Assembly (NCBI GenBank): GCA_029555085.1
Contig: JAKPTO010000030.1
Location: 1 to 63,608, forward strand
Direction: 5' to 3'
Origin: a bacterium
GTDB lineage: Bacteria > Patescibacteriota > Patescibacteriia > UBA1558 > S5-K13
Length of the DNA: 63,608 nt
Made by a program: the position numbers and the translations under genes. Of the stretch, positions 7,317 to 23,904 are shown in pieces (positions within the stretch are counted from its first letter, which is position 1; each line of letters opens with the position of its first letter). The notes under the pieces are model-generated. The model was not told where the DNA came from and searched no databases. It worked only from the letters and a program-made list of their open reading frames with translations.

Positions 7317-7433
7317 ATTTTTATTTTTAAAGAAATCTACAATATTATTATACTACATTTTTTACAATTGTAAATAAATTTAGTATAATATATGTATAGA
7401 ATAAACCCCAGCTAAGGGAACAAAAATAAAAAT

Positions 7434-10169
7434 ATGAAATATTTCAAAAACTCAAAAATGTTTTATTTTAGTGGATTTTTTATATTATTACTTTTTTTAG
7501 TAATAGTAATCCCTAATATAACTGACGCTCAATGGGTAGAACCTGGTTCTGATCCTCCACACAATAATATGCCACTTCCGCTTAATCAAAGCGCTATGGG
7601 GCAATATAAAATAGGACCACTTGTAATAGGTAGTTCTACCATAAATCCAAATTATTTATTCAGTGTTGTTGAGGGGAATTCATTATTTAGTGAAGCATAT
7701 ATTTCAAAAGCTTTAACTGTTCAAGATGGAGCCCAAATAATATTATCTGGCACTAATTCAAAAGTGAATTTATCAAATGGTTCGTCTATAAATTTATCTC
7801 CAGGCACTTCCTTAATAGGAAAATCTGACAATACAGGGAGTGCTATAAGTATTACTCATAGTGGAGATAGTTCACATAGTGGAATTTATTCTTATTCTCC
7901 AGGTGGTTATGCAATTGACACAAGAACAGATAATGGAGTTGCTTTTTTTGCTAATTCCGAGAATGGATGGTCGGTATTTGCTCAAACAAACAAGGGCGTA
8001 GCATTATATGGTAAAAGTGATGACAATTTGGGTGTTGCTGGTAGATTTGATGGAAAAGTTGTATTCAATAATTTATCTGGAACAGAACTTGCTAATATAA
8101 AATCAGGATATTTAACCTCCAAAGGTATTACAACAGTATATCCTCAGGCATTTTATCAAGTAGGAGATGACAATGTATATCAGGAAAATACCGTGGTAAC
8201 AAGTAGGTTGTGTTTTGCGTCAACAACTGCAGATGGATTACACAATCCAGCGCAACCAATGGATTGTAGATATGAATTTGGTACTGCTCCTTATGCAGAA
8301 ACTTGGTATATTTGGAGTTCAAATAATCCAAGTCTTCCAACTGGAGCTTATCAGCCAGCATCAATGAGTTTGGATGGGCTTATTTCTGTTAAATGTAATG
8401 ATGATGGTGTTCAAACAAATCCTTCAAAGGGTATAAAAATAGGAGAGGGTTCATATATATATGATAGTTCTTGTGACAGTGGCGGTGGTGGAGGAGGCGG
8501 GGGAAGTGAAATTCCTTTTAGTGAAACACTGCATATACAATCTCAGGAAGCAATTAAAATAGCTTCGACTAAATATATTGATTTAAAAATAAATCAGGGT
8601 AGTGGAAATGAAAAGGGAATGAGAATTATGAGCACTGGTGATATAGGAATAGGCAGAGATATTAATATGAATAATGATAAATCTATTGCCGTTAATCATA
8701 ATAATAATAGTAAGATTTATATTGGTAATTATTCTGATGGTTTAGGATTTGATTTTGGTACGAGTACACATGGTAATAATCTTACAGCATCATTAAGTGT
8801 TGAGGGGAGCGTAGCTGCTAATGCTTTATGTATGGGAGATGATTGTAGGAGTTCTTGGGGACAGGTTGCTTCTAATTTGTGGACATCGTCTTCCGATAAT
8901 AACAACATCTATCCTACAAATTTAAATGCAAATGTGGGAATAGGAACCACAACTCCTCAGGCGCAATTGCATGTTAATGGTGGAATATATTTAACACCAA
9001 CAACAACACAATTTGCTAAAAATATTCTTTTTAATAATTCGAATGGTGATCTAGTTTGGAGGGGTGGTATTATGTTGGTTGGGGGAGATCTAGGTCCAAA
9101 TCTACATCTAGTTTATGAGACTTGGCAAAACTCTAACGCAGCACCATGGGAGTGGGGCTATAACTCTATAAACGAAGAGCACATATATGGTAAAGGTAAT
9201 CCCAATGGTAATGCTAATTTTAACGTTTCAACTCATCCTGGTAAAAAAATATATAATTTTGCTTTTAACACAGCGTATTTAGAAGCGGGGACTAACTATA
9301 TAATATCCTTTAATGCTCAATCAACAAGCAGTGATGCGAATTATTTTGGATTTGTTTATAACATAAATACAAGCATCAATTCAGATGGAAACAGTTTAAG
9401 CGTGTTGATAATGAAAAAAATAAAAAATTTGGAAAATTATCTTCACTTTATTCCAGAATCTACAGGAATACACAATCTTGCATTTTTTAGTTTTGTAAAA
9501 GATGGAGAAATTACAATTAATAATTTTAGCATAAGAAAACAAGATTCACCGGGTAATATATCAGTTTCTGGTTTATATACTGGTATAGGTGGCTCTGAGG
9601 GGATAAAAGTAGATCCATTTGGTAATGTTGGGATTGGAACATCTGTCCCAGCCGCAGAATTACATGTAGATGGAGATGTTATAATTTCTGGTAGTCTTTG
9701 TGTGGGTGGATTGTGCGTGAATGATCTTCGTTCGCAGTTACAGTGTCCACCAAAAATCGTTCCCGTTATTATTAGTGATGGTGTTTCTCCCTCTTTTGGA
9801 TATTTAAGTTATGAAGATTGCGATAACGAGACACATATTGATCGAGTAAGAATTGAAAAACCACAAATATGTGACTCTAGTTATGCATGTAAGTATTTGG
9901 CGGGTGCTGACCATATGCATACCGCCTATGATCCATGTGTTTCGTGTGAAGCGTTTTGTAAGGTTTTAGGATTGAAGACAAGGGATACAACATATTTTTA
10001 TGAGAACATTGACTATACAGACGATTATAATCAATATGGTGATATTTTTTATTGTGATACTTATCAATGCTATTTTCCTATAGGCGGAAACATTTTGTGG
10101 GGTCCACAGTCAAGTTCGGGTTATACTGGAAGAATAACAAGACTAATGAGTTGTACGTGTTATAAATAG
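7434..10169 (+). CDS. Large secreted or anchored fibre-like surface protein with a Cys-rich C-terminal domain
   Basis: 911 aa. An N-terminal hydrophobic anchor is followed by QWVEPGSDPPHNNMPLPLNQS. The motif (N)VGIGTxxPxAxLHVxG occurs twice (nt 8931-8980 and 9621-9677), as in tail-fibre or surface-fibre proteins. There is an eight-residue Gly linker. The last approximately 150 aa contain about 14 Cys. Confidence 0.8.
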   Translation: MKYFKNSKMFYFSGFFILLLFLVIVIPNITDAQWVEPGSDPPHNNMPLPLNQSAMGQYKIGPLVIGSSTINPNYLFSVVEGNSLFSEAYISKALTVQDGAQIILSGTNSKVNLSNGSSINLSPGTSLIGKSDNTGSAISITHSGDSSHSGIYSYSPGGYAIDTRTDNGVAFFANSENGWSVFAQTNKGVALYGKSDDNLGVAGRFDGKVVFNNLSGTELANIKSGYLTSKGITTVYPQAFYQVGDDNVYQENTVVTSRLCFASTTADGLHNPAQPMDCRYEFGTAPYAETWYIWSSNNPSLPTGAYQPASMSLDGLISVKCNDDGVQTNPSKGIKIGEGSYIYDSSCDSGGGGGGGGSEIPFSETLHIQSQEAIKIASTKYIDLKINQGSGNEKGMRIMSTGDIGIGRDINMNNDKSIAVNHNNNSKIYIGNYSDGLGFDFGTSTHGNNLTASLSVEGSVAANALCMGDDCRSSWGQVASNLWTSSSDNNNIYPTNLNANVGIGTTTPQAQLHVNGGIYLTPTTTQFAKNILFNNSNGDLVWRGGIMLVGGDLGPNLHLVYETWQNSNAAPWEWGYNSINEEHIYGKGNPNGNANFNVSTHPGKKIYNFAFNTAYLEAGTNYIISFNAQSTSSDANYFGFVYNINTSINSDGNSLSVLIMKKIKNLENYLHFIPESTGIHNLAFFSFVKDGEITINNFSIRKQDSPGNISVSGLYTGIGGSEGIKVDPFGNVGIGTSVPAAELHVDGDVIISGSLCVGGLCVNDLRSQLQCPPKIVPVIISDGVSPSFGYLSYEDCDNETHIDRVRIEKPQICDSSYACKYLAGADHMHTAYDPCVSCEAFCKVLGLKTRDTTYFYENIDYTDDYNQYGDIFYCDTYQCYFPIGGNILWGPQSSSGYTGRITRLMSCTCYK

Positions 10170-10241
10170 AAAAAGTATTATTGAATAATTTTTATACTAG
10201 TTTGATGGATAATTTATTTTAATTTTTAATATATTAGTTTT

Positions 10242-12062
10242 ATGAAAAAATTATTTATTCCATTTGTTGTCTTAATATTATTTACAGTAGGTATTTTTAA
10301 CTTTGATGTTGTGTTTTCAGCTGTAGATGAACATTTTCCAGCTCCAAACTGTAGTGCTGGTCAGTGTTACTGTGAAGCTACGGAATATCCATATCTTGAT
10401 AGGGATAGGGGTCTATGTATAGGAGAAAGTGATATATCCTTAAAAGAGGAGAGAAATATAAATAATATAAAATCAATGGGTCTTGAGCTTACAAGTATTA
10501 AAAACAATTATGCTCCTCATTTTATATTTTTATCCGAGGATTTGAGAAATGTTTTAATAGTAAAATTATCTTCTTATTGCGACGACACTCTTAGTGTTAG
10601 TACTTCAACAGTAAAAACTAGTGTGCCACGCGCTCAAAGAGATACTTTTTTTAGAGATAAATATGTTCCACATTTAGGACTTACAAAAGCAGTTGATATT
10701 TTAGGTAAATATGATAGTTTGGGAAACTCTATTCAACATTTAATTACATTAGCGAATACAACAAATCTGTATATTAAAAATAGCGCGATAGATATGGGAG
10801 ATGTGTCTGCTAGTTTGAGTAGTGCAATTACAGAGTTAGGTAATTACATTGATAAATTGAATTCTGATTTAACGGATTTGGGAGGTGTTATTTCTGGTTT
10901 TGATGTAAATAATTTTTATAGTTTTCAGAATTTTTCAGATTTATATAGTGAGTATGAAGCAAGTTTTGGGTCTTCTCTTGATTTATACTTAGAATCTAAA
11001 GACGAGGTTGTGGGTATAGCTATGGAGGCAATAAGAAGAGTCGAAGCAGCGTATAATGAAAATTCCAGTATTAAGGCAGATCCTTATAGTATTTCAGTGG
11101 GAGATAGTTCTGAAGTTACTGTGTCAGTAAGAGATTCTCTAAATAATCCTATAATTGGAAGAACTGTAACACTAATAAGTAGTGGCGGAAATCCAATTAT
11201 AAGTCCAGAATTTCAGGCAACTAATGACAATGGAATAGCTGTGTTTAATGTTAAAGGAACTCAAGTAGGAAAAATTAGTTTAGAAGCAAAAATAGAAGGA
11301 GAAGATCTCGTGATATATGGAAGTTATTTAATAGAAGTTTTAATGAATCAAGCGCAGTTGAGATGCGAGGCGGAGAATGGAAAATGGACTGGAGAAACTT
11401 GTATTTGTCCAGATGGATTGACTTGGGATGAGCGACATTACCATTGCTTTAATCAAAAAGCGCAAGATGGATGTGTGGCTACCGGAGGTACTTGGATTCC
11501 AGAAACTCCTACTTGCAAATGTCCAAAAGAATTACCAATATGGAATGAAGCTAAGTTTATGTGTGTTTCTGAGGATACTCCGGGGAATCCACAAGAAAAT
11601 TGTATAAAAGATGGCGGAACATGGAATGGTAAAACATGTATATGTCGAGATGCTTATTTTTGGGATGCAGGTTGTAAAGATCCTCATTGTATAGAACGCG
11701 CTTCAAATCCAGCAGGAGCGTGTAATGCAGACGGCGGAACATGGGACAGTGAAACAAAAATATGCAAATGTCCAAAAGAATTACCAAAATGGGATGAAGC
11801 TAAGTTTATGTGTGTTAATGTAACTGATCAAGCTCCAGAGACGAATTGTAAAAAAGACGGCGGAACATGGGACGGTGAAACATGCATATGTCAAGATGCT
11901 TATTTTTGGGATGCAGATCCATCAAATCCTCATTGTATAGAGCGCGCTTCAAATCCAGCAGGAGCATGTAATGCGGATGGTGGAAAATGGGACGGTGAAA
12001 CATGTCAGTGCCCAGAGGGATTTATTTGGAACAAGGAAGAATCAATGTGTATAAAAAAATAA
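10242..12062 (+). CDS. Secreted protein with a bacterial Ig-like (Big_1/invasin-type) domain and six C-terminal Cys-rich approximately 30-aa modules
   Basis: 606 aa. A signal peptide ends in VFS/AV. The Ig-like segment reads DPYSISVGDSSEVTVSVRDSLNNPIIGRTVTLISSGGNP...NGIAVFNVKGTQVGKISLEAKI. It is followed by six repeats of the form C..(D)GG.W.G.TC.CP....W......C. Confidence 0.8.
   Translation: MKKLFIPFVVLILFTVGIFNFDVVFSAVDEHFPAPNCSAGQCYCEATEYPYLDRDRGLCIGESDISLKEERNINNIKSMGLELTSIKNNYAPHFIFLSEDLRNVLIVKLSSYCDDTLSVSTSTVKTSVPRAQRDTFFRDKYVPHLGLTKAVDILGKYDSLGNSIQHLITLANTTNLYIKNSAIDMGDVSASLSSAITELGNYIDKLNSDLTDLGGVISGFDVNNFYSFQNFSDLYSEYEASFGSSLDLYLESKDEVVGIAMEAIRRVEAAYNENSSIKADPYSISVGDSSEVTVSVRDSLNNPIIGRTVTLISSGGNPIISPEFQATNDNGIAVFNVKGTQVGKISLEAKIEGEDLVIYGSYLIEVLMNQAQLRCEAENGKWTGETCICPDGLTWDERHYHCFNQKAQDGCVATGGTWIPETPTCKCPKELPIWNEAKFMCVSEDTPGNPQENCIKDGGTWNGKTCICRDAYFWDAGCKDPHCIERASNPAGACNADGGTWDSETKICKCPKELPKWDEAKFMCVNVTDQAPETNCKKDGGTWDGETCICQDAYFWDADPSNPHCIERASNPAGACNADGGKWDGETCQCPEGFIWNKEESMCIKK
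11513..12008 (+). repeat. Intragenic tandem duplication (two units of about 250 bp) encoding Cys-module pairs
   Basis: The unit starting tgcaaatgtccaaaagaattaccaa at 11513 recurs at 11763. The two units align throughout with scattered substitutions of all types, roughly 85 percent identity by eye. The mirrored antisense ORFs 11557-11787 and 11815-12003 are a by-product of this repeat. Confidence 0.85.
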
Positions 12063-12085
12063 TATAATTTAAAAAATAATTATTT

Positions 12086-12316
12086 ATGAATATAGCAAAT
12101 AATAAAAAAACAATACTTTTGGGAATTTTAATCATTGTTTTTGCGCTTGTTATTATTTTTGGAGTAAGTTTTTTCTATTTAAATAGAAATAGAAACAAAA
12201 ATAAAACGAATGATAAAAAATATTATTTAAATATTGATGAAAATAAAGTCATTGAGAATCCAACGACAAACGATATTAAGAACCTAATCGACCAAATCGA
12301 AACTCAGGGTATTTAG
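12086..12316 (+). CDS. Small single-pass membrane protein
   Basis: 76 aa. It has one TM helix (ILLGILIIVFALVIIFGVSFFY) and sits between two giant surface-protein genes on the same strand. Confidence 0.4.
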   Translation: MNIANNKKTILLGILIIVFALVIIFGVSFFYLNRNRNKNKTNDKKYYLNIDENKVIENPTTNDIKNLIDQIETQGI

Positions 12317-12360
12317 TTTGGATAATTATCATTTCAGAAAATATAAAAATACAATTTTTA

Positions 12361-15360
12361 ATGAAAAAAAATATATTAAAACTTTTTATATTGTGCGCTG
12401 TGTTTGTATTGTTTTTTGGAACAATTTTGTTTTTTAGTTTTAGTAATAATAAAAATGTTCTTGCTGTTGAAGATATTACAGGTGGTTGGTTTTGGTCTCC
12501 GCACATTGGTTGGGCGTCGCAAAATTGCAGTAATAGATATTACGGTATTTCATCTTCTGATTATAAAAATTATTGCGGAATAGAGAGATCACCTTATTTA
12601 GATGTTAATTTTAATGGCAAAGATATTTTAATCGGAGAATCTAAAATTATAGATAGTTCTGGAAACGATATAAATGGAATATATAAAGATAATTCCGGAA
12701 ACAAAAATGTTAATGTAAATAATATAAAAATAGGTAGAAGTAACGCAATAAATGGTTATGATGCCTCTTTTACTGGATTTGATTCTTCGGCTATAGAATT
12801 TAAAGATAGAAAGTTTGATATTCATAAATCTGATTATTTTTTTACAATCAGTATGTGGTTTAAAGCGAATCCAGATGATATACAAGAAGCAGAAGCTATG
12901 TTATTTTCTCATCATTCATCATTGTCACATTCTCCAGGAGAGCAAAAAAAATATTATTGCGCTTTATACAAAACATCAATTGCAAGAGAGGATAGAATAA
13001 AGTGCATGTTACATACTTATAGCATTGATAAAACAATAGAATTAGATGATAGGTGGCATAACTTGGTATTGGTATATAATGGAAAAACTTTAAAATTATA
13101 TTTAGATGGTAATGAATATGGATCTGTAAATACGGGAAATTTTAATTATTCGGCAAGTGGCGGGGATGTGACGCTTATTCTCGGAAATTCAAAACCAGGA
13201 TCAGTATATGAAAATGTATTTCCTGGGCAAGTTGATGATTTTAGATTTTGGAGAGAAGCGTTGACATTGGAAGAAATTCAAAAAAATCAATTTTACAACT
13301 CTAATTATGGATTAACAGTTGATGAGAATGGATTTTTAAGTGGATGGTCCTGGTCAAGTCATTATGGTTGGATTTGTTTTGGTGAAACATGTAGAGATGG
13401 CACTCGTCCACATTCAAATATTAATAATGAAACAAAAATTCACAAAACAACAAATTCTGCAAATGGGATATATAAAGACATGATAACTGGTTGGGCGCAA
13501 ATAATAAATTTAAAAGATCATGGTTGGATTGCTTTGAATACAGATCGTGATGAACCAGTTAGTGGTTCTACATATAAAGATTGCGCTAGTTGTATGTCGA
13601 AGGATACAGAAACAGATCTTATTACTTATTTTAAAATGGATGAAGAATCTGGGGATGTAATTTCTGATTATTCTGGTCTTCAACATAATGGGCGATTAAT
13701 TTCAAATAATCAAAATTTTTCATATCCAAATGGCAGGGTTAATAATTGTATATATTTAGATGGAGACGATTATATACAGGTAGATGAAAAATATAACATC
13801 AGAGACAGAGATTTTTCTTTTGAAATTTGGTTTAAACCAAATACTTCCCAGGAAGAAACAATTATAAGCTCTGACCAATTTAATCTTAAAAAAACAGATA
13901 GGGATATTAAATTTGAGTTTATGGAGGTAGGCGATAGTTTATCTAGGGAATATGAATTAAGGACTAATGAATGGTATCATCTTTTGATTTCTGTAAAAAG
14001 AAACGATGATAAAATTTCAGTTTTTTTGTATGTTAATGGTTCTGTGGTTGCGCATTCAGATATGAATGGATATGATAATTTGAAGATAGGTAATTTGAGA
14101 ATTGGAGGTAGTCAAGGTGATGGTTCGAATAATTTTTTTGGATCTATTGATATATTTAGATTATATACAAGAATTTTTTCAGAAGAAGATGCTTTGTATA
14201 ATTATAAATATCCAGAAAAGCGTTTATGTTCGGGATGTTTTCATATTTTTTTAGATGAAAACAAGAATACAAAAAGACATATATGTTATGATTGCAAAAA
14301 GTGCTCTATTTCAGAAGATGCAACATATTCTTATAATTGCGATTCATGTGCTAAGTGTAAAAAATATGGTTTAATTTTTGATTCTAATGAATCAAATATA
14401 AAGGGATTTGCGTGGAATGGTCCAGTTAATCCATTAACAATTAACGAAAGTGGAGTTGGTTGGATACAGTTTTCCCCAAGTCTTTCAGCTGGCGTATATC
14501 AATCTTATGTTTCAGGAAAATATGGAAATATTTATAGTCGTACGAATATAGGAAGCGAGTCTAGTGTCGCGCCACCAGTAGGAAGATATAATGCGACTTA
14601 TTTAATACAGGCAAATGGAGATATTACAAATTGGATTAGCGAGCAAATGATAATCACGGGAGATTCTGGAAATATTTCAGGATATGATTATTCAAGTAAT
14701 TGGATTAACAGAGGCGTTGATTATGAATTTCCTAGTTCAGATAATAGTTATGGAAATATTTTGGGGTCATTAGATTATGATGGGATTATTGGGGGAGAAT
14801 ATGGAAATGTTATAGAAAGATTACCCACACCAGGAGAATGTTTAAATGGTCGTATTTATAAAAAAACTGATGATGTCACCATTGAAGATCCATATATTTT
14901 TCAAGATGGACAATGTTCCAATACTTCCGGCGTAATTGTTATAGAGGGTCGTTTGACAATTAATAAAGATATAACTTATTCATCTCCATCAATATCACAA
15001 GTTAAGCAATTATCCTCAGTCGTTTGGATAATTAAAGGGGATTTAATAATCAATCCAAATGTTACTAATTTGGCGGGTACTTTTATAGTTTTAGGTAAAG
15101 ATGGTGTTGAGTGTGGAGATAATATGAGCCATCTAGAGCGAAATTGCGGAGCGATATATACAGGATCGTCTAATAAGCAATTGTTGGTTTCCGGACAATT
15201 TCTAGCAAAAGCATTTAAATTTGAAAGAACATATAAAAGTGATTTTAGAGAACCAGCGGAATTAATTATTTATGATGGAAGAAATATAGTAAATCCTCCA
15301 CCAGGATTGGGAGATGTATTAAAATCCTTTCCACGATGGGATCAGATAGCGCCTTATTGA
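12361..15360 (+). CDS. Giant secreted protein with two LamG/concanavalin-A-like lectin domains, Trp-rich GWxWS..(I/Y)GWI repeats and an internal Cys cluster
   Basis: 999 aa with an N-terminal anchor. The first Laminin_G_3-type signature is WHNLVLVYNGKTLKLYLDGNEYG...GQVDDFRFWREALTLEEI. The second is WYHLLISV...VFLYVNGSVVAHS...GSIDIFRLYTRIFSEEDA. The repeated Trp motifs are GGWFWSPHIGWAS, GWSWSSHYGWICF, GWAQI..HGWIAL and GFAWNG..GVGWIQF. The Cys cluster reads CSGCFH..CYDCKKCS..CDSCAKCKKYG. Confidence 0.85.
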   Translation: MKKNILKLFILCAVFVLFFGTILFFSFSNNKNVLAVEDITGGWFWSPHIGWASQNCSNRYYGISSSDYKNYCGIERSPYLDVNFNGKDILIGESKIIDSSGNDINGIYKDNSGNKNVNVNNIKIGRSNAINGYDASFTGFDSSAIEFKDRKFDIHKSDYFFTISMWFKANPDDIQEAEAMLFSHHSSLSHSPGEQKKYYCALYKTSIAREDRIKCMLHTYSIDKTIELDDRWHNLVLVYNGKTLKLYLDGNEYGSVNTGNFNYSASGGDVTLILGNSKPGSVYENVFPGQVDDFRFWREALTLEEIQKNQFYNSNYGLTVDENGFLSGWSWSSHYGWICFGETCRDGTRPHSNINNETKIHKTTNSANGIYKDMITGWAQIINLKDHGWIALNTDRDEPVSGSTYKDCASCMSKDTETDLITYFKMDEESGDVISDYSGLQHNGRLISNNQNFSYPNGRVNNCIYLDGDDYIQVDEKYNIRDRDFSFEIWFKPNTSQEETIISSDQFNLKKTDRDIKFEFMEVGDSLSREYELRTNEWYHLLISVKRNDDKISVFLYVNGSVVAHSDMNGYDNLKIGNLRIGGSQGDGSNNFFGSIDIFRLYTRIFSEEDALYNYKYPEKRLCSGCFHIFLDENKNTKRHICYDCKKCSISEDATYSYNCDSCAKCKKYGLIFDSNESNIKGFAWNGPVNPLTINESGVGWIQFSPSLSAGVYQSYVSGKYGNIYSRTNIGSESSVAPPVGRYNATYLIQANGDITNWISEQMIITGDSGNISGYDYSSNWINRGVDYEFPSSDNSYGNILGSLDYDGIIGGEYGNVIERLPTPGECLNGRIYKKTDDVTIEDPYIFQDGQCSNTSGVIVIEGRLTINKDITYSSPSISQVKQLSSVVWIIKGDLIINPNVTNLAGTFIVLGKDGVECGDNMSHLERNCGAIYTGSSNKQLLVSGQFLAKAFKFERTYKSDFREPAELIIYDGRNIVNPPPGLGDVLKSFPRWDQIAPY

Positions 15361-15488
15361 TTAACAGGGTAAGAGGTTAAAAAATAAATAAAGTAAACAA
15401 TTTTAACAAGTATGAAGTTTTGAAACTCAAATGTTTAAAATTTTTTTCGAATTTTAAACTTGATACTTGAGATTAATAATTTAACATT

Positions 15489-16607
15489 ATGGGTTTATTT
15501 TCTAAAAAAAATCAAAATTTTTTGGGTGTAGATATAGGTACATCTGGAATTAAATTAGTTCAACTTGCAAATGAGAAGGGTACGGCTCGTCTTGTTACAT
15601 ATGGATTAGCTGAGATAAATACGGAAATAATAAGAAACAAAACAACTCAAAATATAAATATTGTAGCTGGTAGACTCGCCGGTCTAGTTCAGAAATCAAG
15701 AGTTTCAACAAAAGATTGTTCTGCGGCGCTACCTATTTTTTCAGTATTTAATTCAGTTATAAGCTTACCAGCTATGTCGAAAAATGATATGGATTCTGCT
15801 GTAAAATGGGAAGCAAAAAAATTTATTCCTTTTCCAATAGAAGATATGATTTTGGATTGGAGAGTAATTGCCGATACACAGAATAAACATCAAACAATTT
15901 ATAATGAAAAATCATATGGCAGTACTTCAAATTCTATTGATCAGGACATTATAAAAACAAAATCAAAATTTATAAAAGTTTTATTAACAGCAGCTCCAAA
16001 GAATGTAGTTGCTGTGTATATTGAAATTTTTAAAAAAGCCCAGTTAAATTTATTGAGTTTAGAAGTTGAGTCGTTTGCAATCGCTAGGTCTCTAATTGAT
16101 CAAAATACAAACAATGTAATGGTAATTGACATAGGTTCCGTAACAACAGATGTTTGTGTGGTTGAAAACGGTTTGCCTATTTTAAATAGAAGTATAGAGG
16201 TTGGCGGTAATTTAATGACAGAAAGTATTGCTAGAAGCTTAAATATTAGTTTTGAAAGAGCTGAGCAGTTTAAACAAGATTTTGGTTTAGCGACTAATTT
16301 AGACGAAGGCATATCAATTCCTAAAAAAATAGAAGAAACCTTAGCGCCAATGGTAAATGAAATAAAATATGTTTTTGATTTATATAAAAGACAGAGTAAT
16401 AGTAGGATAGATTCCATAATATTAACTGGCGGATCCGCGTATTTACCAAATTTAATAGATTATTTGAAAAAGGTTTTGAATGCCCCAGTATATATAGGAG
16501 ATCCATGGCACAAAGTTATGTATCCAAAAGAACTTGAGCCAGTTTTGGATGAAATGGGGCCTAAATTCGGTGTTGCGATAGGCCTAGCGCTTAGAAATAT
16601 CATTTAA
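15489..16607 (+). CDS. pilM: Type IV pilus assembly protein PilM (actin/FtsA-like ATPase fold)
   Basis: 372 aa. The phosphate-1 loop is LGVDIGTSGIKLVQL, followed by VIDIGSVTTDVCV and ILTGGSAYLPNL. It is the first gene of a pilMNO-ordered set. Confidence 0.9.
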   Translation: MGLFSKKNQNFLGVDIGTSGIKLVQLANEKGTARLVTYGLAEINTEIIRNKTTQNINIVAGRLAGLVQKSRVSTKDCSAALPIFSVFNSVISLPAMSKNDMDSAVKWEAKKFIPFPIEDMILDWRVIADTQNKHQTIYNEKSYGSTSNSIDQDIIKTKSKFIKVLLTAAPKNVVAVYIEIFKKAQLNLLSLEVESFAIARSLIDQNTNNVMVIDIGSVTTDVCVVENGLPILNRSIEVGGNLMTESIARSLNISFERAEQFKQDFGLATNLDEGISIPKKIEETLAPMVNEIKYVFDLYKRQSNSRIDSIILTGGSAYLPNLIDYLKKVLNAPVYIGDPWHKVMYPKELEPVLDEMGPKFGVAIGLALRNII

Positions 16608-16647
16608 TTTATTTGTTGTTTTTTAGTTTATAAACTATAATTAATAC

Positions 16648-17733
16648 ATGTCAGATATAAATTTATTACCAGACGATTTAAAGAAAAGAGAACAGAAAAT
16701 TCTTAGTAAAAGAGGTGGTTCTTCTAATTCAGAAATAGAATTTACCACGGGACAAAAACTACCCGATAATTTAGATAATTCAAGAAATTCAACAATAAAT
16801 AATAAACCAAACAATATTTCATATAAAAAAGAAGAGATAAATAATCAATATAATGTTTTAAAAGGTGATGTTTCTGAAGTTGTAAAAAAAGAAGAATTAG
16901 ATGATATTTTGGATTTAGATAATTTGGATATTGATAAAAATATACAAAAAAAGGAAATAGCAAAAACAATGCCAATTTCAAGTAAAACTGTAAAAAAGTC
17001 AAACAATTCTCAGTTACCGCCACAACAAGCACCAATAAAACAAATTTCTCGTGACAAATCTTTGAAATCAAAAAAAGATAATGTTTCTTTTTTTAAGAAA
17101 ATTTCTAATATTTTTACCAAAAAGAAAGAGGATACAGATGAACAAAATTCAAATGTTAATCTTTTACCGAAAGATTTAAAAATAGTAAGTAGCGAAAGCA
17201 TTTTGAATATAGCTATTTATACTCTTCTTATATCAATTGTTATTTTATTTGTGGTTTATTTCGGAATTGTTATTTATAAAATAAACATAGAAAAACAACT
17301 TATAGCATTAAACTCAAAAACACAAGAAGCGCTAAAGGATGTGGAGCATTACGATAAAGTAATAGATGACGCGGAGGATTCTAAGAGTAGAATTAATAAA
17401 ATTATAGGATTGTTTAATAAACATATTTACTGGACTCAATTTTTTTCTAAAATTGAAAAGAGCACTCTACCAGAGGTTAAATTTAATGCCTTTGCCGGCA
17501 ATATTACTGGCAATATTGTTCTTTCAGCTAGCGCTCCAGATTATTATACTGTGGCAAGGCAATGGTTGTATTTAAAGAATAAGTCCCCTGAACTTGTTAA
17601 AGATATTATAATAGAGGGGGCTTCCGCATCTGGATCGGCAAGCGCTGGAGCTGATACGAGGATAAATTTCTCTATAACTCTAGATTTAAATGATGATGTC
17701 TTTTATAAAACAAATATAAGTACAAATGAATAA
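16648..17733 (+). CDS. pilN: PilN-like pilus alignment protein with a long low-complexity N-terminal extension
   Basis: 361 aa. The DINLLP motif lies at residues 3-8. A second NVNLLPKDLK (nt 17152-17181) lies immediately before the single TM helix and the periplasmic-type domain. Confidence 0.75.
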   Translation: MSDINLLPDDLKKREQKILSKRGGSSNSEIEFTTGQKLPDNLDNSRNSTINNKPNNISYKKEEINNQYNVLKGDVSEVVKKEELDDILDLDNLDIDKNIQKKEIAKTMPISSKTVKKSNNSQLPPQQAPIKQISRDKSLKSKKDNVSFFKKISNIFTKKKEDTDEQNSNVNLLPKDLKIVSSESILNIAIYTLLISIVILFVVYFGIVIYKINIEKQLIALNSKTQEALKDVEHYDKVIDDAEDSKSRINKIIGLFNKHIYWTQFFSKIEKSTLPEVKFNAFAGNITGNIVLSASAPDYYTVARQWLYLKNKSPELVKDIIIEGASASGSASAGADTRINFSITLDLNDDVFYKTNISTNE

Positions 17734-17745
17734 TATTTAAATATA

Positions 17746-18456
17746 ATGTTTAAAGAAAATAAATTAAATAATGTTTTTGACGCAAATTCTATCAACGAAT
17801 CAGGTAGTTCTGCTATTAATATTAGCAGTAAACCAATTTCAAAATATACTATTTTTATTTCTAAACATATAAAGATTTTGGTTTTTATAGAAATTGTTTT
17901 GGTGTTTGTAATTGGGTATATGTTTTTAATACAACCAAAATTAAGTGAATTGTCAGCATCAAATAAAATGTTAAAAGACAAAAATCTTGAACTGCAAAAA
18001 ATTCAGGAATATTTAGTTACTAGTAAAAATTTAAACGAAGATTATCAAAAAATAAAAACCGACAACGAAAGACAGCTTGAAAAATTATTAATAATTCTTC
18101 CAAATGATAAAGAATTGCCAGAACTTTTTGCTCAAATAGAAGCTCTCGCAATAAAACAAAATCTTATAGTGGGTAATATATCAGTAAATAGTAGTTCTAA
18201 TATAAGTTCTTCTGAGAAGAAAAATCAAAACACAGAACAAGCAACAAAAAACAGCGATCTCATTAGAGAAATTGAGGTTTCTGTTTCTATTTTAAGCGAC
18301 GATGGTTCATATGACAAAGTTAAAAAGTTTTTAGACGCAATGGAAACACATATTAGATTAATTGATATAACATCATTTAGTTTTGATGAAAAAATGACAT
18401 CTTATTCAATAGTTTTTAAAACATATTTTTTAAAAAGCAATGAAAGCAAAAGTTGA
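17746..18456 (+). CDS. pilO: PilO-like pilus alignment protein
   Basis: 236 aa. It has a TM helix, then a coiled coil (LQPKLSELSASNKMLKDKNLELQKIQEYL), then an alpha/beta C-terminal region. It occupies the position after pilN. Confidence 0.65.
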   Translation: MFKENKLNNVFDANSINESGSSAINISSKPISKYTIFISKHIKILVFIEIVLVFVIGYMFLIQPKLSELSASNKMLKDKNLELQKIQEYLVTSKNLNEDYQKIKTDNERQLEKLLIILPNDKELPELFAQIEALAIKQNLIVGNISVNSSSNISSSEKKNQNTEQATKNSDLIREIEVSVSILSDDGSYDKVKKFLDAMETHIRLIDITSFSFDEKMTSYSIVFKTYFLKSNESKS

Positions 18457-18775
18457 TCAAAAATTAATAGTTTTGTTTGTAATCATAATTATAATGGTGG
18501 GTGTGGTTTTTTATTTTCTTAACAAAAAAGAAAAAGAGAATAGAGAGATGATAAACAATATAAACAATCAAACAGTGGGATTGCAAGTAATACAAAGCAA
18601 GCAGGCAAAGTTTGATTCTTTGGTTAAGAGTATAAAAAATATTTTTGCTGAAGCAAAATTTGATTCATTTACAAGGAATTTAAAAACATATATCAATTTA
18701 CCAATCGATACTGGAAGAGTGGGCAATCCGTATCCATTTGGTAATTATCGACAAAGCACAGAGGAATTAAAATAA
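18440..18775 (+). CDS. Small single-pass membrane protein in the pilP position
   Basis: 111 aa with one TM helix. It overlaps the pilO stop by 17 nt and ends 1 nt before the pilB start, which suggests translational coupling. Confidence 0.5.
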   Translation: MKAKVDQKLIVLFVIIIIMVGVVFYFLNKKEKENREMINNINNQTVGLQVIQSKQAKFDSLVKSIKNIFAEAKFDSFTRNLKTYINLPIDTGRVGNPYPFGNYRQSTEELK

Positions 18776-18776
18776 T

Positions 18777-20540
18777 ATGATAGTTGATTATAATAATAAA
18801 ATATTTTCAAAAATAAAAGAACTTGGCATATTGGATGATGGCAAGATGAATTTTATTATAGAAAAATTACAAGAAAAACCAGATACAAACATAGACAAAA
18901 TTATAAAACAGTATTATATGGTCGATGGAGAGGAATATGCAAAAATAAAATCAGAAGTTATTAATATTCCATACAAAAATCTTATTGACGAGAATATAGA
19001 TAAAGAAGTTTTAAGGATATTGCCACAAAATTTATCTGAGAATTATAAAATGGTTATTTTTAAAAAAGAGGATAATGTTTTGCATGTAGGAATGGTTGAT
19101 CCAGAAAATTTTAACGCAGTAGAAGCAATTGAATTTTTAGCGCATAAAAATAATTACAGTTTAAAAAGTTATATTATTTCAGAAGATAGTTTTAATAGCG
19201 CTTTTCAAAAATCTGGCGATTTAAAAGAAGAAGTTGGGGAAGTTCTGGATTACGCAAAAGAAAAATTTGAGGATATTAATTTAGACGAAAATCTTTTAGA
19301 GGCGCAGGATTTGGGAGAGATTATAAGAACCGCGCCAGTTACAAAAATAGTTTCAGTTATTATTAAACATGCTGTTGACGGACGCGCTTCAGATATTCAT
19401 ATAGAGCCAGTTGGGAGAAGATCGGTTGTTAGATTTAGAATTGACGGAAGATTACACAACTCTATAGTTTTGCCAATATATATACATAACGCGCTTATAA
19501 CAAGGGTGAAAGTTATGGCAAATATGAAAATTGATGAAACTAGAATTCCTCAAGACGGAAGAATAAGAATTAAGGTAAGAAAAGATAAAGAAGAAAAAAA
19601 GATAGATTTTAGAGTTTCAACACTTCCGTTGCTTGATTATGAAAAAGTTGTTATGAGAATTTTATATACGCCAGATACTGTTCCAACATTTGAAGATTTG
19701 GGATTTATGGGTTCTGTAAGACAGATGATTGAAACTGGCATAGAAAAACCAAACGGAATGTTCTTAGTAACTGGGCCAACTGGAAGCGGTAAATCATTTA
19801 CTTTATTTACAGCGCTTAATAAAGTTAACGCCGAGGATATAAATATTTCTACACTTGAAGATCCAGTTGAGTATAATATCGAAAGAGTTAATCAATCGCA
19901 AATAAGGCCAGAAATTGGATTTACATTTGCCTCGGGTCTTAGATCTTTGCTTAGACAAGATCCAGATGTTATTATGGTTGGAGAAATTAGAGATTTAGAA
20001 ACAGCAGAACTCGCAGTTCATGCTGCGCTTACAGGACATTTGGTTTTATCAACACTCCACACAAATAATGCATTAGGAGCAATTCCAAGATTGATGGATA
20101 TGAAAATAGAGCCATTTTTACTTGCATCAACTTTAAATTTGGTTATAGCGCAGCGTTTAGTAAGAAAAATATGCGGAAATTGTGTACAAGAAATTAAGCC
20201 CTCAGAAACAATGCTTAATGTAGTCAAACCAATATTGGATAATTTACCAGAATCAGCTTTTTATGGTAAATTTAAAAAAGGAGATATCCCAAAATTTTAT
20301 CAGGGGGCTGGTTGCAATAGATGTGGAGGAACTGGATATAAGGGGAGAATTGCAATTGTAGAAGTTATTTTATTAGATAAACAATTGAGGGAAATAATAA
20401 GTAGCGGTGGAAATATTGCGGATTTTGAAAGAGCAATGAAAGAAACAGGATATATAAATATGCTACAAGATGGTATCATAAAAGCAATGAATGGAATTAC
20501 AACAATTGAAGAGGTGATAAGTGTTACCAACGAAGAATAA
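18777..20540 (+). CDS. pilB: Type IV pilus extension ATPase PilB (GspE/T2SSE family)
   Basis: 587 aa. It has a T2SSE N-terminal domain, Walker A GPTGSGKSFT, Walker B DPDVIMVGEIRD, the His box LTGHLVLSTLHTN, and the tetracysteine CGNC...CNRCGGTGYKGR. Confidence 0.93.
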   Translation: MIVDYNNKIFSKIKELGILDDGKMNFIIEKLQEKPDTNIDKIIKQYYMVDGEEYAKIKSEVINIPYKNLIDENIDKEVLRILPQNLSENYKMVIFKKEDNVLHVGMVDPENFNAVEAIEFLAHKNNYSLKSYIISEDSFNSAFQKSGDLKEEVGEVLDYAKEKFEDINLDENLLEAQDLGEIIRTAPVTKIVSVIIKHAVDGRASDIHIEPVGRRSVVRFRIDGRLHNSIVLPIYIHNALITRVKVMANMKIDETRIPQDGRIRIKVRKDKEEKKIDFRVSTLPLLDYEKVVMRILYTPDTVPTFEDLGFMGSVRQMIETGIEKPNGMFLVTGPTGSGKSFTLFTALNKVNAEDINISTLEDPVEYNIERVNQSQIRPEIGFTFASGLRSLLRQDPDVIMVGEIRDLETAELAVHAALTGHLVLSTLHTNNALGAIPRLMDMKIEPFLLASTLNLVIAQRLVRKICGNCVQEIKPSETMLNVVKPILDNLPESAFYGKFKKGDIPKFYQGAGCNRCGGTGYKGRIAIVEVILLDKQLREIISSGGNIADFERAMKETGYINMLQDGIIKAMNGITTIEEVISVTNEE

Positions 20541-20572
20541 TTTATAAAATTTTATAAGTAATACCCAATATA

Positions 20573-20956
20573 ATGGCTAAAGAAAAAATTAAAATTTTAA
20601 TAGCAGAGGACGATTCTTTTTTGGCGCAAATGTATTCAGAAAAATTAGAGAAAGAAGGTATAGAGGTTATTTTAGCAACTAATGGCGTTGAAGCTATTGA
20701 TAAAATGAAAATAGAAATGCCGGATTTGTTACTTTTAGATCTTTTGATGCCAAAGAAAAATGGATTCGAGGTTTTACAAGAAAAATTGTCTGATGAAAAA
20801 ATTAGAGACATTCCAGTAATTGTTCTTACTAATTTGTCTCAAAAAGAAGACATAAAAAAATGTTATGATTTGGGAGCAAGAGAGTTTATGATAAAAGCAT
20901 ATTTTATTCCAAGTGAAATTATAGACAAAATTAAAAAATTATTAAATGTAGAATAA
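20573..20956 (+). CDS. Stand-alone CheY-like response-regulator receiver domain
   Basis: 127 aa. It reads ILIAEDD ... the phospho-acceptor context DLLLLDLLMPKKNG ... VLTNL ... K near the C-terminus. There is no output domain. Confidence 0.88.
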   Translation: MAKEKIKILIAEDDSFLAQMYSEKLEKEGIEVILATNGVEAIDKMKIEMPDLLLLDLLMPKKNGFEVLQEKLSDEKIRDIPVIVLTNLSQKEDIKKCYDLGAREFMIKAYFIPSEIIDKIKKLLNVE

Positions 20957-20961
20957 TAATT

Positions 20962-22002
20962 ATGCCCGCAGTTGATCAGTTGTATTTAACAGAATTAGTA
21001 AATGAAGCCATAAGAAACGAAGCTTCATCTATTTATTTTGATATAAGTAATTATCCGGTTATAAAAACATCTGGTAAATTAAAAAAAATCACCACAGAAG
21101 ATGTATTAACAAAAGATTTTTTAGAAACAATGAAAGATTTTTTCTTATCAGATGATCAAATTGAAGAACTTCAAACAAAAAAAGAAATTACAATAGGTTA
21201 TGATTGGTCTACTGATATGAGATTATCTGTTAATTTTTTCTTTCAGAAAAATTCATTATCTGTTGTGATTAATTTGATACCTTTAAATATAAAGGATATG
21301 AAGGAGTTGAATTTACCAAATATAGTTTCAGATATTTTAAATTTAAATTCAGGACTTGTATTAATATGTGGACCAATAGGATCTGGAAGAACCACAACTG
21401 TTATTTCAATACTTCAGACAATAAATCAAACAAAAGAGAAAAGAATTCTTACGATAGAGGATCCAATTGAATATGAATTTATAAATGATAAATCAATAAT
21501 ACAACAAAGAGAAGTAGGAAAAGATATTCCATCTTTTGAAGTCGGAATTACTCAGGCAATGGATGAATCAATAGATGTTTTATTTATTTCAAATATTTCT
21601 ACGCCAAATCAAATTAAATTAGCGCTTGAATCAGCGAGTTCAGGAAAACTCGTGTTTGCAATAATGGATTGTGATTTAATTAACACAGCAATAGAAAAAA
21701 TGTTTGCAAGTTTCAAATCTTCAGAAAAAGATTTTGGAACGACTTTGGTTTCAGAGTCATTAAAAGTCGTAATAAATCAAAGGTTGTTACAAAAAATCGG
21801 AGGTGGAAGAATTTTGGCGTCTGAGGTATTTGTAATGAACTCATCTGGAAAAGCAATCGTTAAATCAGGAAGATTGGAACAACTTAGATCTATTATGCAG
21901 ACATCTCGCGCTGACAATATGCAAGATTTAAATAGTGTTTTAAGGTCCTTAGTGCAAAAGGGAATGGTAAAACCAGAAGAAGCAGAAAAATATTTAATTT
22001 AA
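20962..22002 (+). CDS. pilT: Type IV pilus retraction ATPase PilT
   Basis: 346 aa. Walker A is GPIGSGRTTT, followed by TIEDPIEYEF. The size and domain layout are those of PilT/PilU rather than PilB. Confidence 0.85.
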   Translation: MPAVDQLYLTELVNEAIRNEASSIYFDISNYPVIKTSGKLKKITTEDVLTKDFLETMKDFFLSDDQIEELQTKKEITIGYDWSTDMRLSVNFFFQKNSLSVVINLIPLNIKDMKELNLPNIVSDILNLNSGLVLICGPIGSGRTTTVISILQTINQTKEKRILTIEDPIEYEFINDKSIIQQREVGKDIPSFEVGITQAMDESIDVLFISNISTPNQIKLALESASSGKLVFAIMDCDLINTAIEKMFASFKSSEKDFGTTLVSESLKVVINQRLLQKIGGGRILASEVFVMNSSGKAIVKSGRLEQLRSIMQTSRADNMQDLNSVLRSLVQKGMVKPEEAEKYLI

Positions 22003-22006
22003 TCTT

Positions 22007-23218
22007 ATGCCAATATTTAATTATAAAGCTCTAAATCAACTTAACCAAGCTTTAGAAGGAGCTGTTGAAGCGCCAACTATTGAATTAGCAGAAAGTGTTT
22101 TAGTGGATAGAGGACTTAGAGTTATTAGTATCCAAGAACAGAAAAAATATGATTTAGCGGATTTAAAAATATTAAATATTTTATCTGGAGTAAAGAAAAA
22201 AGATTTAGTTGTTTTTTCAAGACAATTATCTGTTATGGTTTCCGCAACAGTTCCAATAATACAGTCACTAAGAAGCATTGGACAGCAAACAAAAAATGGA
22301 AAATTGAGATCCATTATAAATATTATAGCTGATGATGTTGACGGAGGATTAAAACTTTCCGAAGCAATGAAAAAACACTCTATTTTTGATAATTTTTTCG
22401 TAAACATGGTTGCTTCCGGAGAGACATCTGGAAAGTTAGACGAGGTTTTAAGTTATTTAGCTGATGAGGTAGAAAAAAGCTACGATCTTCAAGCAAAAAT
22501 AAAAGGAGCTATGATATATCCTGTATTTATAGTTTGTGGACTTATTATAGTCGCTATTGCTATGATGATTTTTGTAATACCAAATTTAACTAGCATGCTT
22601 ACGCAATCTGGTCAAGAATTGCCACTTCCAACTAAAATTTTAATAGGAATAAGTAATTTTTTTAGGTTTAAATATATATATATAATAATTTTTGCGATTA
22701 TTTTTGGCGGTGGTGGATTTTATTTTTTTAAAAAAACAGAATCAGGAAGGAATTTTGCTGGAGGGATAAAATTGAGATTCCCGGTTTTTGGAAGGTTATT
22801 TCAAAATATTTATTTAGTGAGATTTGCTGGAACATTATCGAGTTTAATTACCGCCGGAGTTCCTCTTACAGAAGCATTGCGTATAACAGCTGAAGTTGTA
22901 TCAAATAAAAAATACAAAGACATAATAGAAGAAACAATGAAAAAAGTTGAGGACGGCTATTCGCTTGCTGATGAATTATCAAAAAGTTATTTATTTCCGC
23001 CAATGGTTTCACAGATGTTGAGAATAGGGGAGAAAACAGGAAGAATGAATTTTGTTCTTGATAAATTGGCTTCATTTTATTCTCGAGAAGTGTCAAATAT
23101 GGTTGCAAATTTAACATCTTTGCTTGAACCTATGATTATGGTGGCAATTGGCGTTGGTGTAGGAGGAATGGTTGCTGCGGTTATTATGCCTATGTATAAT
23201 ATGGCAAATGCATTTTAA
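22007..23218 (+). CDS. pilC: Type IV pilus platform protein PilC (GspF/T2SSF family)
   Basis: 403 aa. It has two T2SSF repeats, each a cytoplasmic helical domain followed by a TM segment. Motifs include FSRQLSVMVSATVPI and GEKTGRMNFVLDKLASFY. Confidence 0.92.
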   Translation: MPIFNYKALNQLNQALEGAVEAPTIELAESVLVDRGLRVISIQEQKKYDLADLKILNILSGVKKKDLVVFSRQLSVMVSATVPIIQSLRSIGQQTKNGKLRSIINIIADDVDGGLKLSEAMKKHSIFDNFFVNMVASGETSGKLDEVLSYLADEVEKSYDLQAKIKGAMIYPVFIVCGLIIVAIAMMIFVIPNLTSMLTQSGQELPLPTKILIGISNFFRFKYIYIIIFAIIFGGGGFYFFKKTESGRNFAGGIKLRFPVFGRLFQNIYLVRFAGTLSSLITAGVPLTEALRITAEVVSNKKYKDIIEETMKKVEDGYSLADELSKSYLFPPMVSQMLRIGEKTGRMNFVLDKLASFYSREVSNMVANLTSLLEPMIMVAIGVGVGGMVAAVIMPMYNMANAF

Positions 23219-23221
23219 ATT

Positions 23222-23250
23222 TTGATCTAATTTTGAAAATATGATATAAT
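23222..23250 (+). promoter_or_regulatory. Sigma-70-type promoter for the pilin gene
   Basis: -35 TTGATC (23222-23227), a 17 nt spacer, and an extended -10 TGaTATAAT (TATAAT at 23245-23250). The 5' UTR of about 110 nt contains the hairpin CTTTGG-tttgtg-CCAAAG. Confidence 0.6.
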
Positions 23251-23362
23251 ATATAAGTGGAATTTTTTATGGTTATAAGCTTTGGTTTGTGCCAAAGATA
23301 AAATAATTAATATATAAAATTTTGTCGAGTTTAATTCGGCAAAGAAAGGATTAATAAAACAA

Positions 23363-23815
23363 ATGAACAAGAAAAAAGGTTTTACACTGATAGAACTTTT
23401 GGTGGTTATCGCCATCATAGGTTTATTAGCAACACTTGCTGTTGTGTCCCTAAACAGCGCTAGAGCAAAAGCAAGAGACGCACAAAGGGTCTCAGATGTT
23501 AAGCAAATTTCTACTGCTCTTGAGATGTATTACGCATCAAATGGTGATTATCCGGTTTGTGGCAGTTATAGTGCTGATATAGCAGTTTCAGCCTGTACGG
23601 GTCTTGATCTCGATGCTGAATTATCGAGTTTTAACGATCCAAAAGACTCAGAAGTGTGCGTTAACGGTAGCACAGGATGTAATTATACTTTTACAGTAAT
23701 GGGAAACGATGGGTATGAAATTTGCTTTGCTTTAGAATCTGGTTCTGGAAGTTTGGGAGATGGTTTAAATAAGATTACAACAGGTGGAATGTTGTCACCT
23801 GGTTGTACTTTCTAA
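23363..23815 (+). CDS. pilA: Type IV (major) pilin with a class III signal peptide
   Basis: 150 aa. The N-terminus is MNKKKG/FTLIELLVVIAIIGLLATLAVVSL, giving the prepilin peptidase site G/F with Glu5. The C-terminal globular part has multiple Cys. Confidence 0.93.
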   Translation: MNKKKGFTLIELLVVIAIIGLLATLAVVSLNSARAKARDAQRVSDVKQISTALEMYYASNGDYPVCGSYSADIAVSACTGLDLDAELSSFNDPKDSEVCVNGSTGCNYTFTVMGNDGYEICFALESGSGSLGDGLNKITTGGMLSPGCTF

Positions 23816-23832
23816 TACCTATTGACTTTTAA

Positions 23833-23862
23833 ATCCCCCACCTTCGAGGTGGGGGATTTTTT
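23833..23862 (+). terminator. Rho-independent terminator after the pilin gene
   Basis: ATCCCCCACC-TTCGA-GGTGGGGGAT followed by TTTTT. Partial copies of the same hairpin core (CACCTTCGAGGTGGGG, AACCTCGAAGGTT) follow at 23865-23896 and face the tRNA-Arg 3' end. Confidence 0.85.
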
Positions 23863-23904
23863 AAACCTCGAAGGTTGGAGCACCTTCGAGGTGGGGATTA
23901 TTAA

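Follow-up and report, generated by a model that had tools for sequence, protein, structure and literature searches.

The DNA analysed here, a 63,608-nt stretch of contig JAKPTO010000030.1 from the patescibacterial assembly GCA_029555085.1 (hereafter the window), carries a type IV pilus (T4P) operon preceded by genes for three large secreted proteins of 911, 606 and 999 residues, termed ORF911, ORF606 and ORF999. We found that ORF999 appears to represent a new protein family, built from GW hairpins and a C-terminal domain (C-domain) modelled as a beta-solenoid, and that the gene for this family stands directly upstream of pilM in all 33 informative loci, at PilM identities down to 37%. To judge from this gene order, a functional tie of the ORF999 family to the pilus machine is very likely. 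ORF911 forms a second conserved family, recognised by a motif after its signal peptide, by NVGIGT repeats and by the position of its gene between LemA and the solenoid gene. Together, ORF999 and ORF911 quite possibly constitute a pilus-linked surface- or host-recognition module, that is, a set of modular adhesins, of a type-IVa-like pilus operon.

The original prediction for this DNA had described a co-oriented block of giant and pil genes, and the open reading frame (ORF) map and the Pfam searches agree with it in content and coordinates. A single plus-strand block at 7434-23815 contains the three large secreted proteins and a 76-aa membrane protein (ORF76), followed by the pil genes, while the minus-strand ORFs within it are short (≤123 aa) and overlap others. 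After ORF76 the order is ORF999, pilM-N-O, a 111-aa ORF with a transmembrane (TM) segment and pilB-cheY-pilT-pilC-pilA, so that nine more plus-strand genes follow ORF999 up to 23815. From the first giant gene to pilM, the successive intergenic gaps measure 72, 23, 44 and 128 nt; they are -17 to 40 nt within pilM-pilC and 144 nt before pilA. All three giants have Sec-type N-termini, with 19 (ORF911), 30 (ORF606) and 22 (ORF999) cysteines, and the lectin and immunoglobulin-like (Ig) domains anticipated in them were recovered as Laminin_G_3, Big_1 and Foldseek LamG matches.

We then investigated the synteny of the ORF999 family with pilM. A direct search detected only nine full-length ORF999 orthologues, at 42-100% identity and with the whole neighbourhood kept, a conservation that by itself reflects close kinship only. 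A peptide-pattern scan, in which the C-domain alignment was run against a single genome for each species, yielded 32 loci in 32 assemblies, one hit each and none away from pil genes; the named hits belong to Komeilibacteria, Buchananbacteria, Kerfeldbacteria and Uhrbacteria, the others being placeholder-named or further Patescibacteria. When the window proteins were compared with these loci by tblastn, the C-domain gene was found directly before pilM, with the same operon order and a gap to pilM of ~10-440 nt, in every locus with a continuing contig (30 of the 32). Three distant members from an independent hidden Markov model search completed the 33 loci; each of the three immediately precedes pilM, and in one the flanks are unrelated and the gap is 9 nt. 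A related locus reached through a distant ORF911 homologue (L006, via P0021) has other upstream genes, yet it retains the fibre gene, a 602-aa gene and pilM-N-O-x-B-cheY-T-C-pilA, with a PilM 46% identical to that of the window. A minus-strand LemA homologue lies ~1-7 kb upstream of the solenoid domain in most related loci, and the closest named relatives of the block are Komeili-, Buchanan- and Uhrbacteria.

ORF999 begins with a Sec-type signal (residues 1-35), shows no TM anchor beyond it, and carries GW hairpins at residues 42-53, 328-340, 377-392 and 682-703. Pfam matched Laminin_G_3 to two stretches (1.1e-36, 126.7 bits, above threshold), which places these two inserts among the LamG/ConA-like lectin domains. 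Models of these jelly-roll domains matched laminin LG4-5 and neurexin LNS pairs in Foldseek with E values of 1e-11 to 1e-13, and further matches were lectin-like domains of clostridial neurotoxins and trans-sialidase. The protein ends in the motif ...IIYDGR..NPPPGL.D..K..P.W., and the terminal motifs are near-invariant in the family. A profile search with the C-domain retrieved 1331 representative clusters at E≤1e-3, of which 544 pass 1e-10 and 203 pass 1e-30, and the domain formed the protein C-terminus in all but a few among the 150 matches listed. In most complete members, a signal peptide with basic n-region, hydrophobic core and AxA-like site is followed within a few residues by the first GWxWS..GWISLN hairpin, and inserts found between hairpins among 65 family members comprise LamG, F5/8-type-C, FG-GAP, fn3, PKD, Big and Cys-rich DUF4215 domains. 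Short members (~500-650 aa) lack LamG and retain the hairpins and the C-domain. The 602-aa protein of L006 thus shares its last 345 residues with ORF999 at 35% identity (E 2e-45), together with the GWxWS..GW motifs, and since this LamG-less homologue has the same hairpins and C-domain, ORF999 can be regarded as a conserved scaffold with LamG domains inserted. In the LamG-bearing loci, identity is 26-47% over the N-terminal part, 46-65% over the C-domain and 63-83% over PilM.

The ORF999 scaffold fell outside Pfam and NCBIfam coverage, ORF999 and the 65 family members having been searched in Pfam, and PHROGs and NCBIfam gave nothing informative for the giants. DUF7305 reached 21 bits with the L006 member (threshold 27 bits) and E ~1e-4 in 3 of the 65 members; membership was rejected because the score is below the gathering threshold, and no paper mentioning DUF7305 was found. 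Family members that carry a source name are labelled 'hypothetical protein', and no paper describing the family turned up in literature searches, which were not aimed at the family itself and were incomplete in coverage. In two loci (L037 6764-11005 and L038 6761-11008), the gene right after LemA encodes a single protein of 1413-1415 aa with the solenoid C-domain and 41-43 Cys, and a fibre gene of its own is missing; the protein may be a fusion or have an expanded N-terminal part.

The structure of ORF999 was modelled with AlphaFold2 (AF2). The full-length model, from a nine-sequence alignment, had a pLDDT of 50 and was confident for the LamG domains only; it was set aside as poor, and a C-domain model from 32 sequences (pLDDT 71.7) was used instead. 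In this model, domain residues 130-290 scored 81-98 and residues 290-320 72-82, and they form short repeated strands. The top Foldseek matches were ice-binding beta-solenoids (9lhs, FfIBP 7ehk/4nu2 and 6bg8; probability 0.8-0.99, with 0.96-0.99 for the best, TM-score 0.37-0.47), and the next was Thermus thermophilus ComZ (6qvi_B; E 0.22, probability 0.77, TM-score 0.18-0.26). This suggests that the C-domain folds as a triangular-type beta-solenoid of the class seen in ice-binding proteins and ComZ, without implying homology. The C-domain profile had no match among PDB sequences, and Foldseek against viral structures returned nothing useful. ORF999 shows neither a PilY1 domain nor a pilin motif.

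The inserted lectin, Ig and discoidin domains, like the apparently fast-evolving N-terminal part, are typical of exposed ligand-binding proteins. The main rival to the adhesin reading is that the ORF999 family is structural and builds an extracytoplasmic collar or conduit, by which the filament would be led across the wall or S-layer of an envelope without a secretin, in functional analogy to PilP/PilQ/TsaP and with the GW hairpins binding wall polymers. Such a role would agree well with a gene that is always beside pilM-N-O (33/33 loci), hit once per genome assembly and placed among the alignment-complex genes, not the pilins, with a conserved C-domain bearing near-invariant terminal motifs, and with a window in which no secretin was found. 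It accounts less well for the highly variable lectin, Ig and discoidin inserts, for an N-terminal part that diverges (26-47% identity) more than the C-domain (46-65%), and for a protein without a TM anchor past its signal peptide. We know of no comparable collar component described for monoderm T4P, and we regard the structural explanation as somewhat unlikely.

After its signal peptide, ORF911 reads W-V-E-P-G-S-D-P-P-H-N-N at residues 26-37; an NVGIGT..L.V.G motif occurs both at residue 501 and at residue 732, and the C-terminal head (~155 aa) contains 13 Cys. Its homologues share W-x-x-P-x3-P-P-x2-N right after the signal peptide, often continued by ...P.N.G...Q.K.G.L.I, as well as NVGIGT..L.V.G repeats and alternative Cys-rich C-terminal heads. 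This layout resembles that of an adhesin fibre, in which a conserved N-terminal end would serve for attachment and a shaft would carry a distal head that can be exchanged. Among the 25 distinct loci with enough upstream sequence, ~18 have a plus-strand, motif-bearing ORF upstream of the solenoid gene, usually right after the divergent LemA gene. Two extra motif-bearing homologues lie in the same upstream neighbourhood, only one of them on a contig that reaches the solenoid gene. Fibre repeats of the NVGIGT type occur widely among unrelated surface and phage proteins, and a phage tail-fibre origin of ORF911 was considered on account of these repeats; it was dropped, as no phage genes occur at the locus and the motif-bearing homologues examined are all beside the pil locus or in the same upstream neighbourhood.

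ORF606 has an Ig domain of the invasin/intimin type (residues 288-353; Big_1 9.9e-11, 42 bits; Invasin_D3 35.1 bits, both above threshold) and contains five C..GG.W..C.C Cys-rich modules. It has only four detectable relatives; neither ORF606 nor ORF76 extends beyond the closer clade, and both look like later, lineage-specific accessories. To treat the three giants as one unit linked to the pilus operon was thus too strong, since the link holds for ORF999 (33/33) and ORF911 (~18/25), and ORF606 and ORF76 are clade-specific. In one locus (L005, GCA_028708725.1), the ORF76 slot at 16003-17636 is occupied by three paralogous TM ORFs of 87, 79 and 107 aa with a common ..NPT.EDI.DL...I motif. This slot also holds a 231-aa secreted coiled-coil ORF, and the Cys-repeat gene of L005 is interrupted by a gap in the assembly, as might result from repeat collapse.

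These distributions also bear on the possibility that the giants are pilus-independent surface fibres, adhesins or S-layer-associated proteins, merely co-regulated with the pilus and without a physical link to it. The ordinary Sec signals and lack of pilin features in all three, the variation of ORF606 and ORF76 between clades, the loci without the fibre gene and the spread of NVGIGT-type repeats through unrelated surface and phage proteins would all be compatible with such independence. Co-regulation, however, rarely holds an exact operon position where PilM is 37-47% identical and the flanks differ, and the family was hit once per assembly and never away from pil genes. We therefore consider this explanation unlikely.

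We also examined which parts of the pilus machinery accompany the giants. A type IVa-like set is encoded together, namely PilM, PilN, PilO, PilB, PilT, PilC and a pilin with a class-III signal, all recognised by Pfam except PilN, which was assigned by position and motif. The gene for the PilN-like protein lies between pilM and pilO, and the protein has a single TM segment and contains the motif twice (INLLP at residue 4 and VNLLP at ~residue 170). This protein is unusually long (361 aa), its N-terminal half is low-complexity and N/K/S-rich, and the motif is of the PilM-binding type. The pilA signal KKG/FTLIELLVV is the sole class-III motif (G-FTLIE) when the 63.6-kb window is read in six frames; neither the six-frame motif scan nor Pfam found a class-III signal or N_methyl domain in ORF911, ORF606 or ORF999, where a hydrophobic stretch precedes an AxA-type site. 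PilD (Peptidase_A24) and the PilQ secretin were not found in the window by Pfam on the non-obvious ORFs, with ribosomal and other recognisable ORFs judged by translation or operon context, and the gene tables of related loci contain no secretin either. The window thus has no PilQ, no PilD and a single class-III pilin, as originally stated, and the absence of PilD, secretin and minor pilins refers to this window as distinct from the remaining genome, where the remaining pilins and pilD are most likely located.

The related loci have one to four pilin genes after pilC. Close relatives whose contigs reach far enough (L002 and L003) have a single one, and L028, L032 and L034 have 3-4, some with divergent minor-pilin-type N-termini, with the solenoid gene still before pilM. 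In L043 (12491-13357) and L045 (12424-13356), the TM ORF after pilO is replaced by a ~290-310-aa protein with faint fn3-type matches, and the fourth alignment-complex gene is therefore variable. The pilin counts bear on the proposal, made in the original prediction, that the giants replace the minor-pilin/PilY1 priming complex. One pilin and no PilY1 in the window, and the single pilin after pilC in L002 and L003, speak for this proposal. However, because relatives with the same upstream gene carry 3-4 pilin genes (L028, L032 and L034, divergent ones included), the giants coexist with minor pilins and are not replacements for them; moreover, the giants are without the hydrophobic pilin helix needed to prime assembly, and the remaining genome lies outside the 63.6-kb view. 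A replacement is thus very improbable.

Under the recognition role proposed above for ORF999 and ORF911, the giants would be transcribed together with pilMNO-BTC and pass the membrane by way of Sec. ORF999 would dock through its conserved solenoid end, either at the pilus tip via minor pilins whose genes lie elsewhere, in the manner of PilY1, or at the machine, and the variable lectin/Ig parts and the fibre head would bind glycans on a host or surface. In the course of PilB/PilT cycles, PilT-driven retraction would pull the cell to its target. Between the hairpins of the ORF999 scaffold sit binding modules that differ from lineage to lineage, and in ORF911 the N-terminal motif would be of a docking type, followed by the repeat shaft and the variable Cys-rich head.

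Several points weigh against this role. The contact between the giants and the pilus is one that we infer from sequence. With Sec-type signals and no pilin helix, the giants are unable to polymerise into the filament, and the window has no minor pilins to which they could dock. The ORF999 gene lies beside pilMNO, the alignment complex, and not beside the pilins, a position just as compatible with a structural role. Confidence is low for half of the C-domain model, including the first 130 C-domain residues, and for the GW region; the C-domain Foldseek matches to the PDB all have E > 1e-3 and TM-scores ≤0.47, and beta-solenoids are common folds. The fibre gene was not found in ~7 loci (L012, L015, L019, L032, L034, L037 and L038, both Uhrbacteria loci included). 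Finally, the promoter and terminator calls occur at background frequency.

With regard to transcription, the 128-nt spacer between ORF999 and pilM (15361-15488) contains no terminator-like site and folds no better than shuffles (z = -0.29), so that the terminator that could have separated the giants from the pil genes was not found. The promoter-like site ahead of ORF911 is a candidate start of the block transcript. Both the separate promoter and the terminator that had been predicted for pilA were seen, the former as a site with TG extension at 23222-23250 that is a consensus match only, but calls of either kind are consensus matches at background frequency, the region's promoter count being 103 versus 101 in shuffles. 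The hairpin sequence of the pilA terminator, ACCTTCGAGGTGGGG, occurs twice within 60 nt (~23842-23856 and ~23883-23897), and a minus-strand tRNA-Arg(GCG) gene at 23905-23979 follows directly. The features of the block and its immediate neighbours are listed in Table 1.

Table 1. Features of the plus-strand block and its flanks; coordinates are positions in the window.
Feature	Coordinates	Strand	Evidence and remarks
LemA family gene	6439..6996	-	Pfam LemA 5.5e-62; divergent neighbour of the block, kept in most related loci
84-aa single-TM ORF	7062..7316	-	Divergent from ORF911; 45-50% identity in close relatives L001, L007, L009
Promoter-like site TTTACA-17-TATAAT	7361..7389	+	Ahead of ORF911; 11/12 consensus matches only
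ORF911, fibre-like secreted protein	7434..10169	+	No Pfam or NCBIfam match
ORF606, secreted, Big_1 Ig domain and Cys-rich modules	10242..12062	+	Pfam; clade-specific
ORF76, small single-TM protein	12086..12316	+	Clade-specific
ORF999, GW-hairpin/beta-solenoid protein, first conserved gene of the pil operon	12361..15360	+	
ORF999 LamG domain 1 (~residues 144-310), between GW hairpins	12790..13290	+	Pfam Laminin_G_3; AF2 pLDDT mostly ~55-84
ORF999 LamG domain 2 (~residues 420-605)	13618..14175	+	Pfam Laminin_G_3, AF2, Foldseek
ORF999 C-terminal domain (residues 670-999), last GW hairpin and modelled beta-solenoid	14368..15357	+	
pilM	15489..16607	+	Pfam PilM_2 1e-51
pilN-like, 361 aa	16648..17733	+	Position and INLLP motif; no Pfam match
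pilO	17746..18456	+	Pfam PilO 1.7e-6
111-aa single-TM ORF	18440..18775	+	Same position in many related loci
pilB extension ATPase	18777..20540	+	Pfam T2SSE 3e-125, plus MshEN
CheY-type receiver	20573..20956	+	Pfam Response_reg 4e-21; kept between pilB and pilT
pilT-type ATPase, 346 aa	20962..22002	+	Pfam T2SSE 2e-19
pilC platform protein	22007..23218	+	Pfam T2SSF 7.8e-64
pilA pilin, KKG/FTLIELLVVIAIIGLLA, 150 aa, 6 Cys	23363..23815	+	Pfam N_methyl 3.1e-10
Terminator-like hairpin CCCCCACCT-TCG-AGGTGGGGG, then ATTTTTT	~23836..23866	+	G+C stem and T-run, 3' of pilA

Further features were noted around the block. The divergent LemA gene borders the fibre/solenoid/pil block in many distant loci (L006, L020-L024, L031, L033, L036-L038, L044 and L045), often with genes for an M48 peptidase and a ClpB-like ATPase on its far side. 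A check of base composition for signs of horizontal transfer showed that the G+C content is 0.34-0.35 over ORF911 and ORF606 (8-12 kb) versus ~0.28-0.29 in the flanks, a modest rise that may simply reflect the amino-acid composition of these genes. An IS481-type integrase/transposase (rve, rve_3, HTH) occupies the very start of the window (10-900, plus strand). A ComM-like Mg-chelatase/MCM ATPase (940-2466, minus strand), likewise a conserved neighbour in close relatives, and DprA (30205-31296, minus strand) are natural-transformation genes less than 15 kb from the pil operon; their proximity is a hint that this pilus may serve in DNA uptake.

Much of bacterial diversity belongs to the Patescibacteria, and the cultivated ones live attached to host cells. 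To our knowledge, the molecules by which Patescibacteria outside Saccharibacteria choose and hold their hosts are largely unknown. The ORF999 family offers a concrete host-recognition candidate, being encoded by the first gene of the pil operon, found once per assembly and equipped with exchangeable lectin-type modules on a conserved scaffold. It gives a means to predict, for uncultured lineages, host or glycan specificity from their genomes, and targets for expression and binding studies; should the family prove to be structural, it would reveal the route of a pilus across an S-layer-bearing envelope that has no secretin. More broadly, we tentatively suggest that the GW-hairpin/beta-solenoid proteins could be an undescribed class of dedicated non-pilin T4P partners in a large part of Patescibacteria, an independent counterpart of PilY1 and ComZ. 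With the partner fibre, they could act as a plug-in host-recognition device, in which an exchange of lectin/Ig inserts and fibre heads would change the specificity, or else be the missing envelope-crossing component of a secretin-less machine.

Among known systems, PilY1 of Pseudomonas and Myxococcus resembles ORF999 as a Sec-exported, large non-pilin encoded with pilus genes, a proposed adhesin that is tip-associated in type IVa pili, and in combining a conserved C-terminal domain with a variable N-terminal binding part. However, the C-domain of PilY1 is a beta-propeller, whereas that of ORF999 was modelled as a beta-solenoid; the PilY1 gene accompanies those of minor pilins and does not precede pilM, and no PilY1 domain was found in the giants in Pfam or NCBIfam. 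The ice-binding/DUF3494 proteins are the best structural matches of the C-domain model, but ORF999 and the 65 family members have no DUF3494 match in Pfam, and the gene context is unrelated to ice binding. Two further proteins are linked to monoderm T4P: PilC of Streptococcus sanguinis is a true pilin with a modular ConA/LamG-type lectin, and the Caldicellulosiruptor tapirins are beta-helix adhesins encoded at a pilus locus, although the fold match of tapirin to the ORF999 C-domain is not significant (Foldseek E 5.6).

The statement in the original prediction that no characterised example of such a combination was known proved overstated in view of ComZ (PMC6561018) and PilX1/PilX2 (PMC12206443). 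The solenoid of Thermus thermophilus ComZ (PDB 6QVI) is closest to the ice-binding protein FfIBP, and ComZ has been argued to cap the competence pilus as a tip receptor (PMC6561018). The possible likeness to ORF999, supported by a weak match, lies in an ice-binding-type beta-solenoid within a pilus-associated protein; ComZ, however, is a pilin with its solenoid inserted in a GspK-like pseudopilin fold, whereas ORF999 starts with a Sec signal and lacks any pilin motif. In Saccharibacteria, the large, lectin-like pilus proteins PilX1 and PilX2, for which no PilD signal is predicted, mediate host binding (PMC12206443). Compared by description, those of Nanosynbacter lyticus TM7x are, like ORF999, patescibacterial T4P-locus proteins, with jelly-roll/propeller lectin-like domains, but they are lollipop pilins with added C-terminal domains and occupy another position in the locus. 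We propose that ORF999 may work like PilY1, ComZ or PilX, while membership in each of these families fails for want of a propeller, a pilin domain or a class-III signal. The finding is best placed with a known kind, T4P-locus-encoded non-pilin adhesin-type proteins, and is carried by two families that are widespread and uncharacterised.

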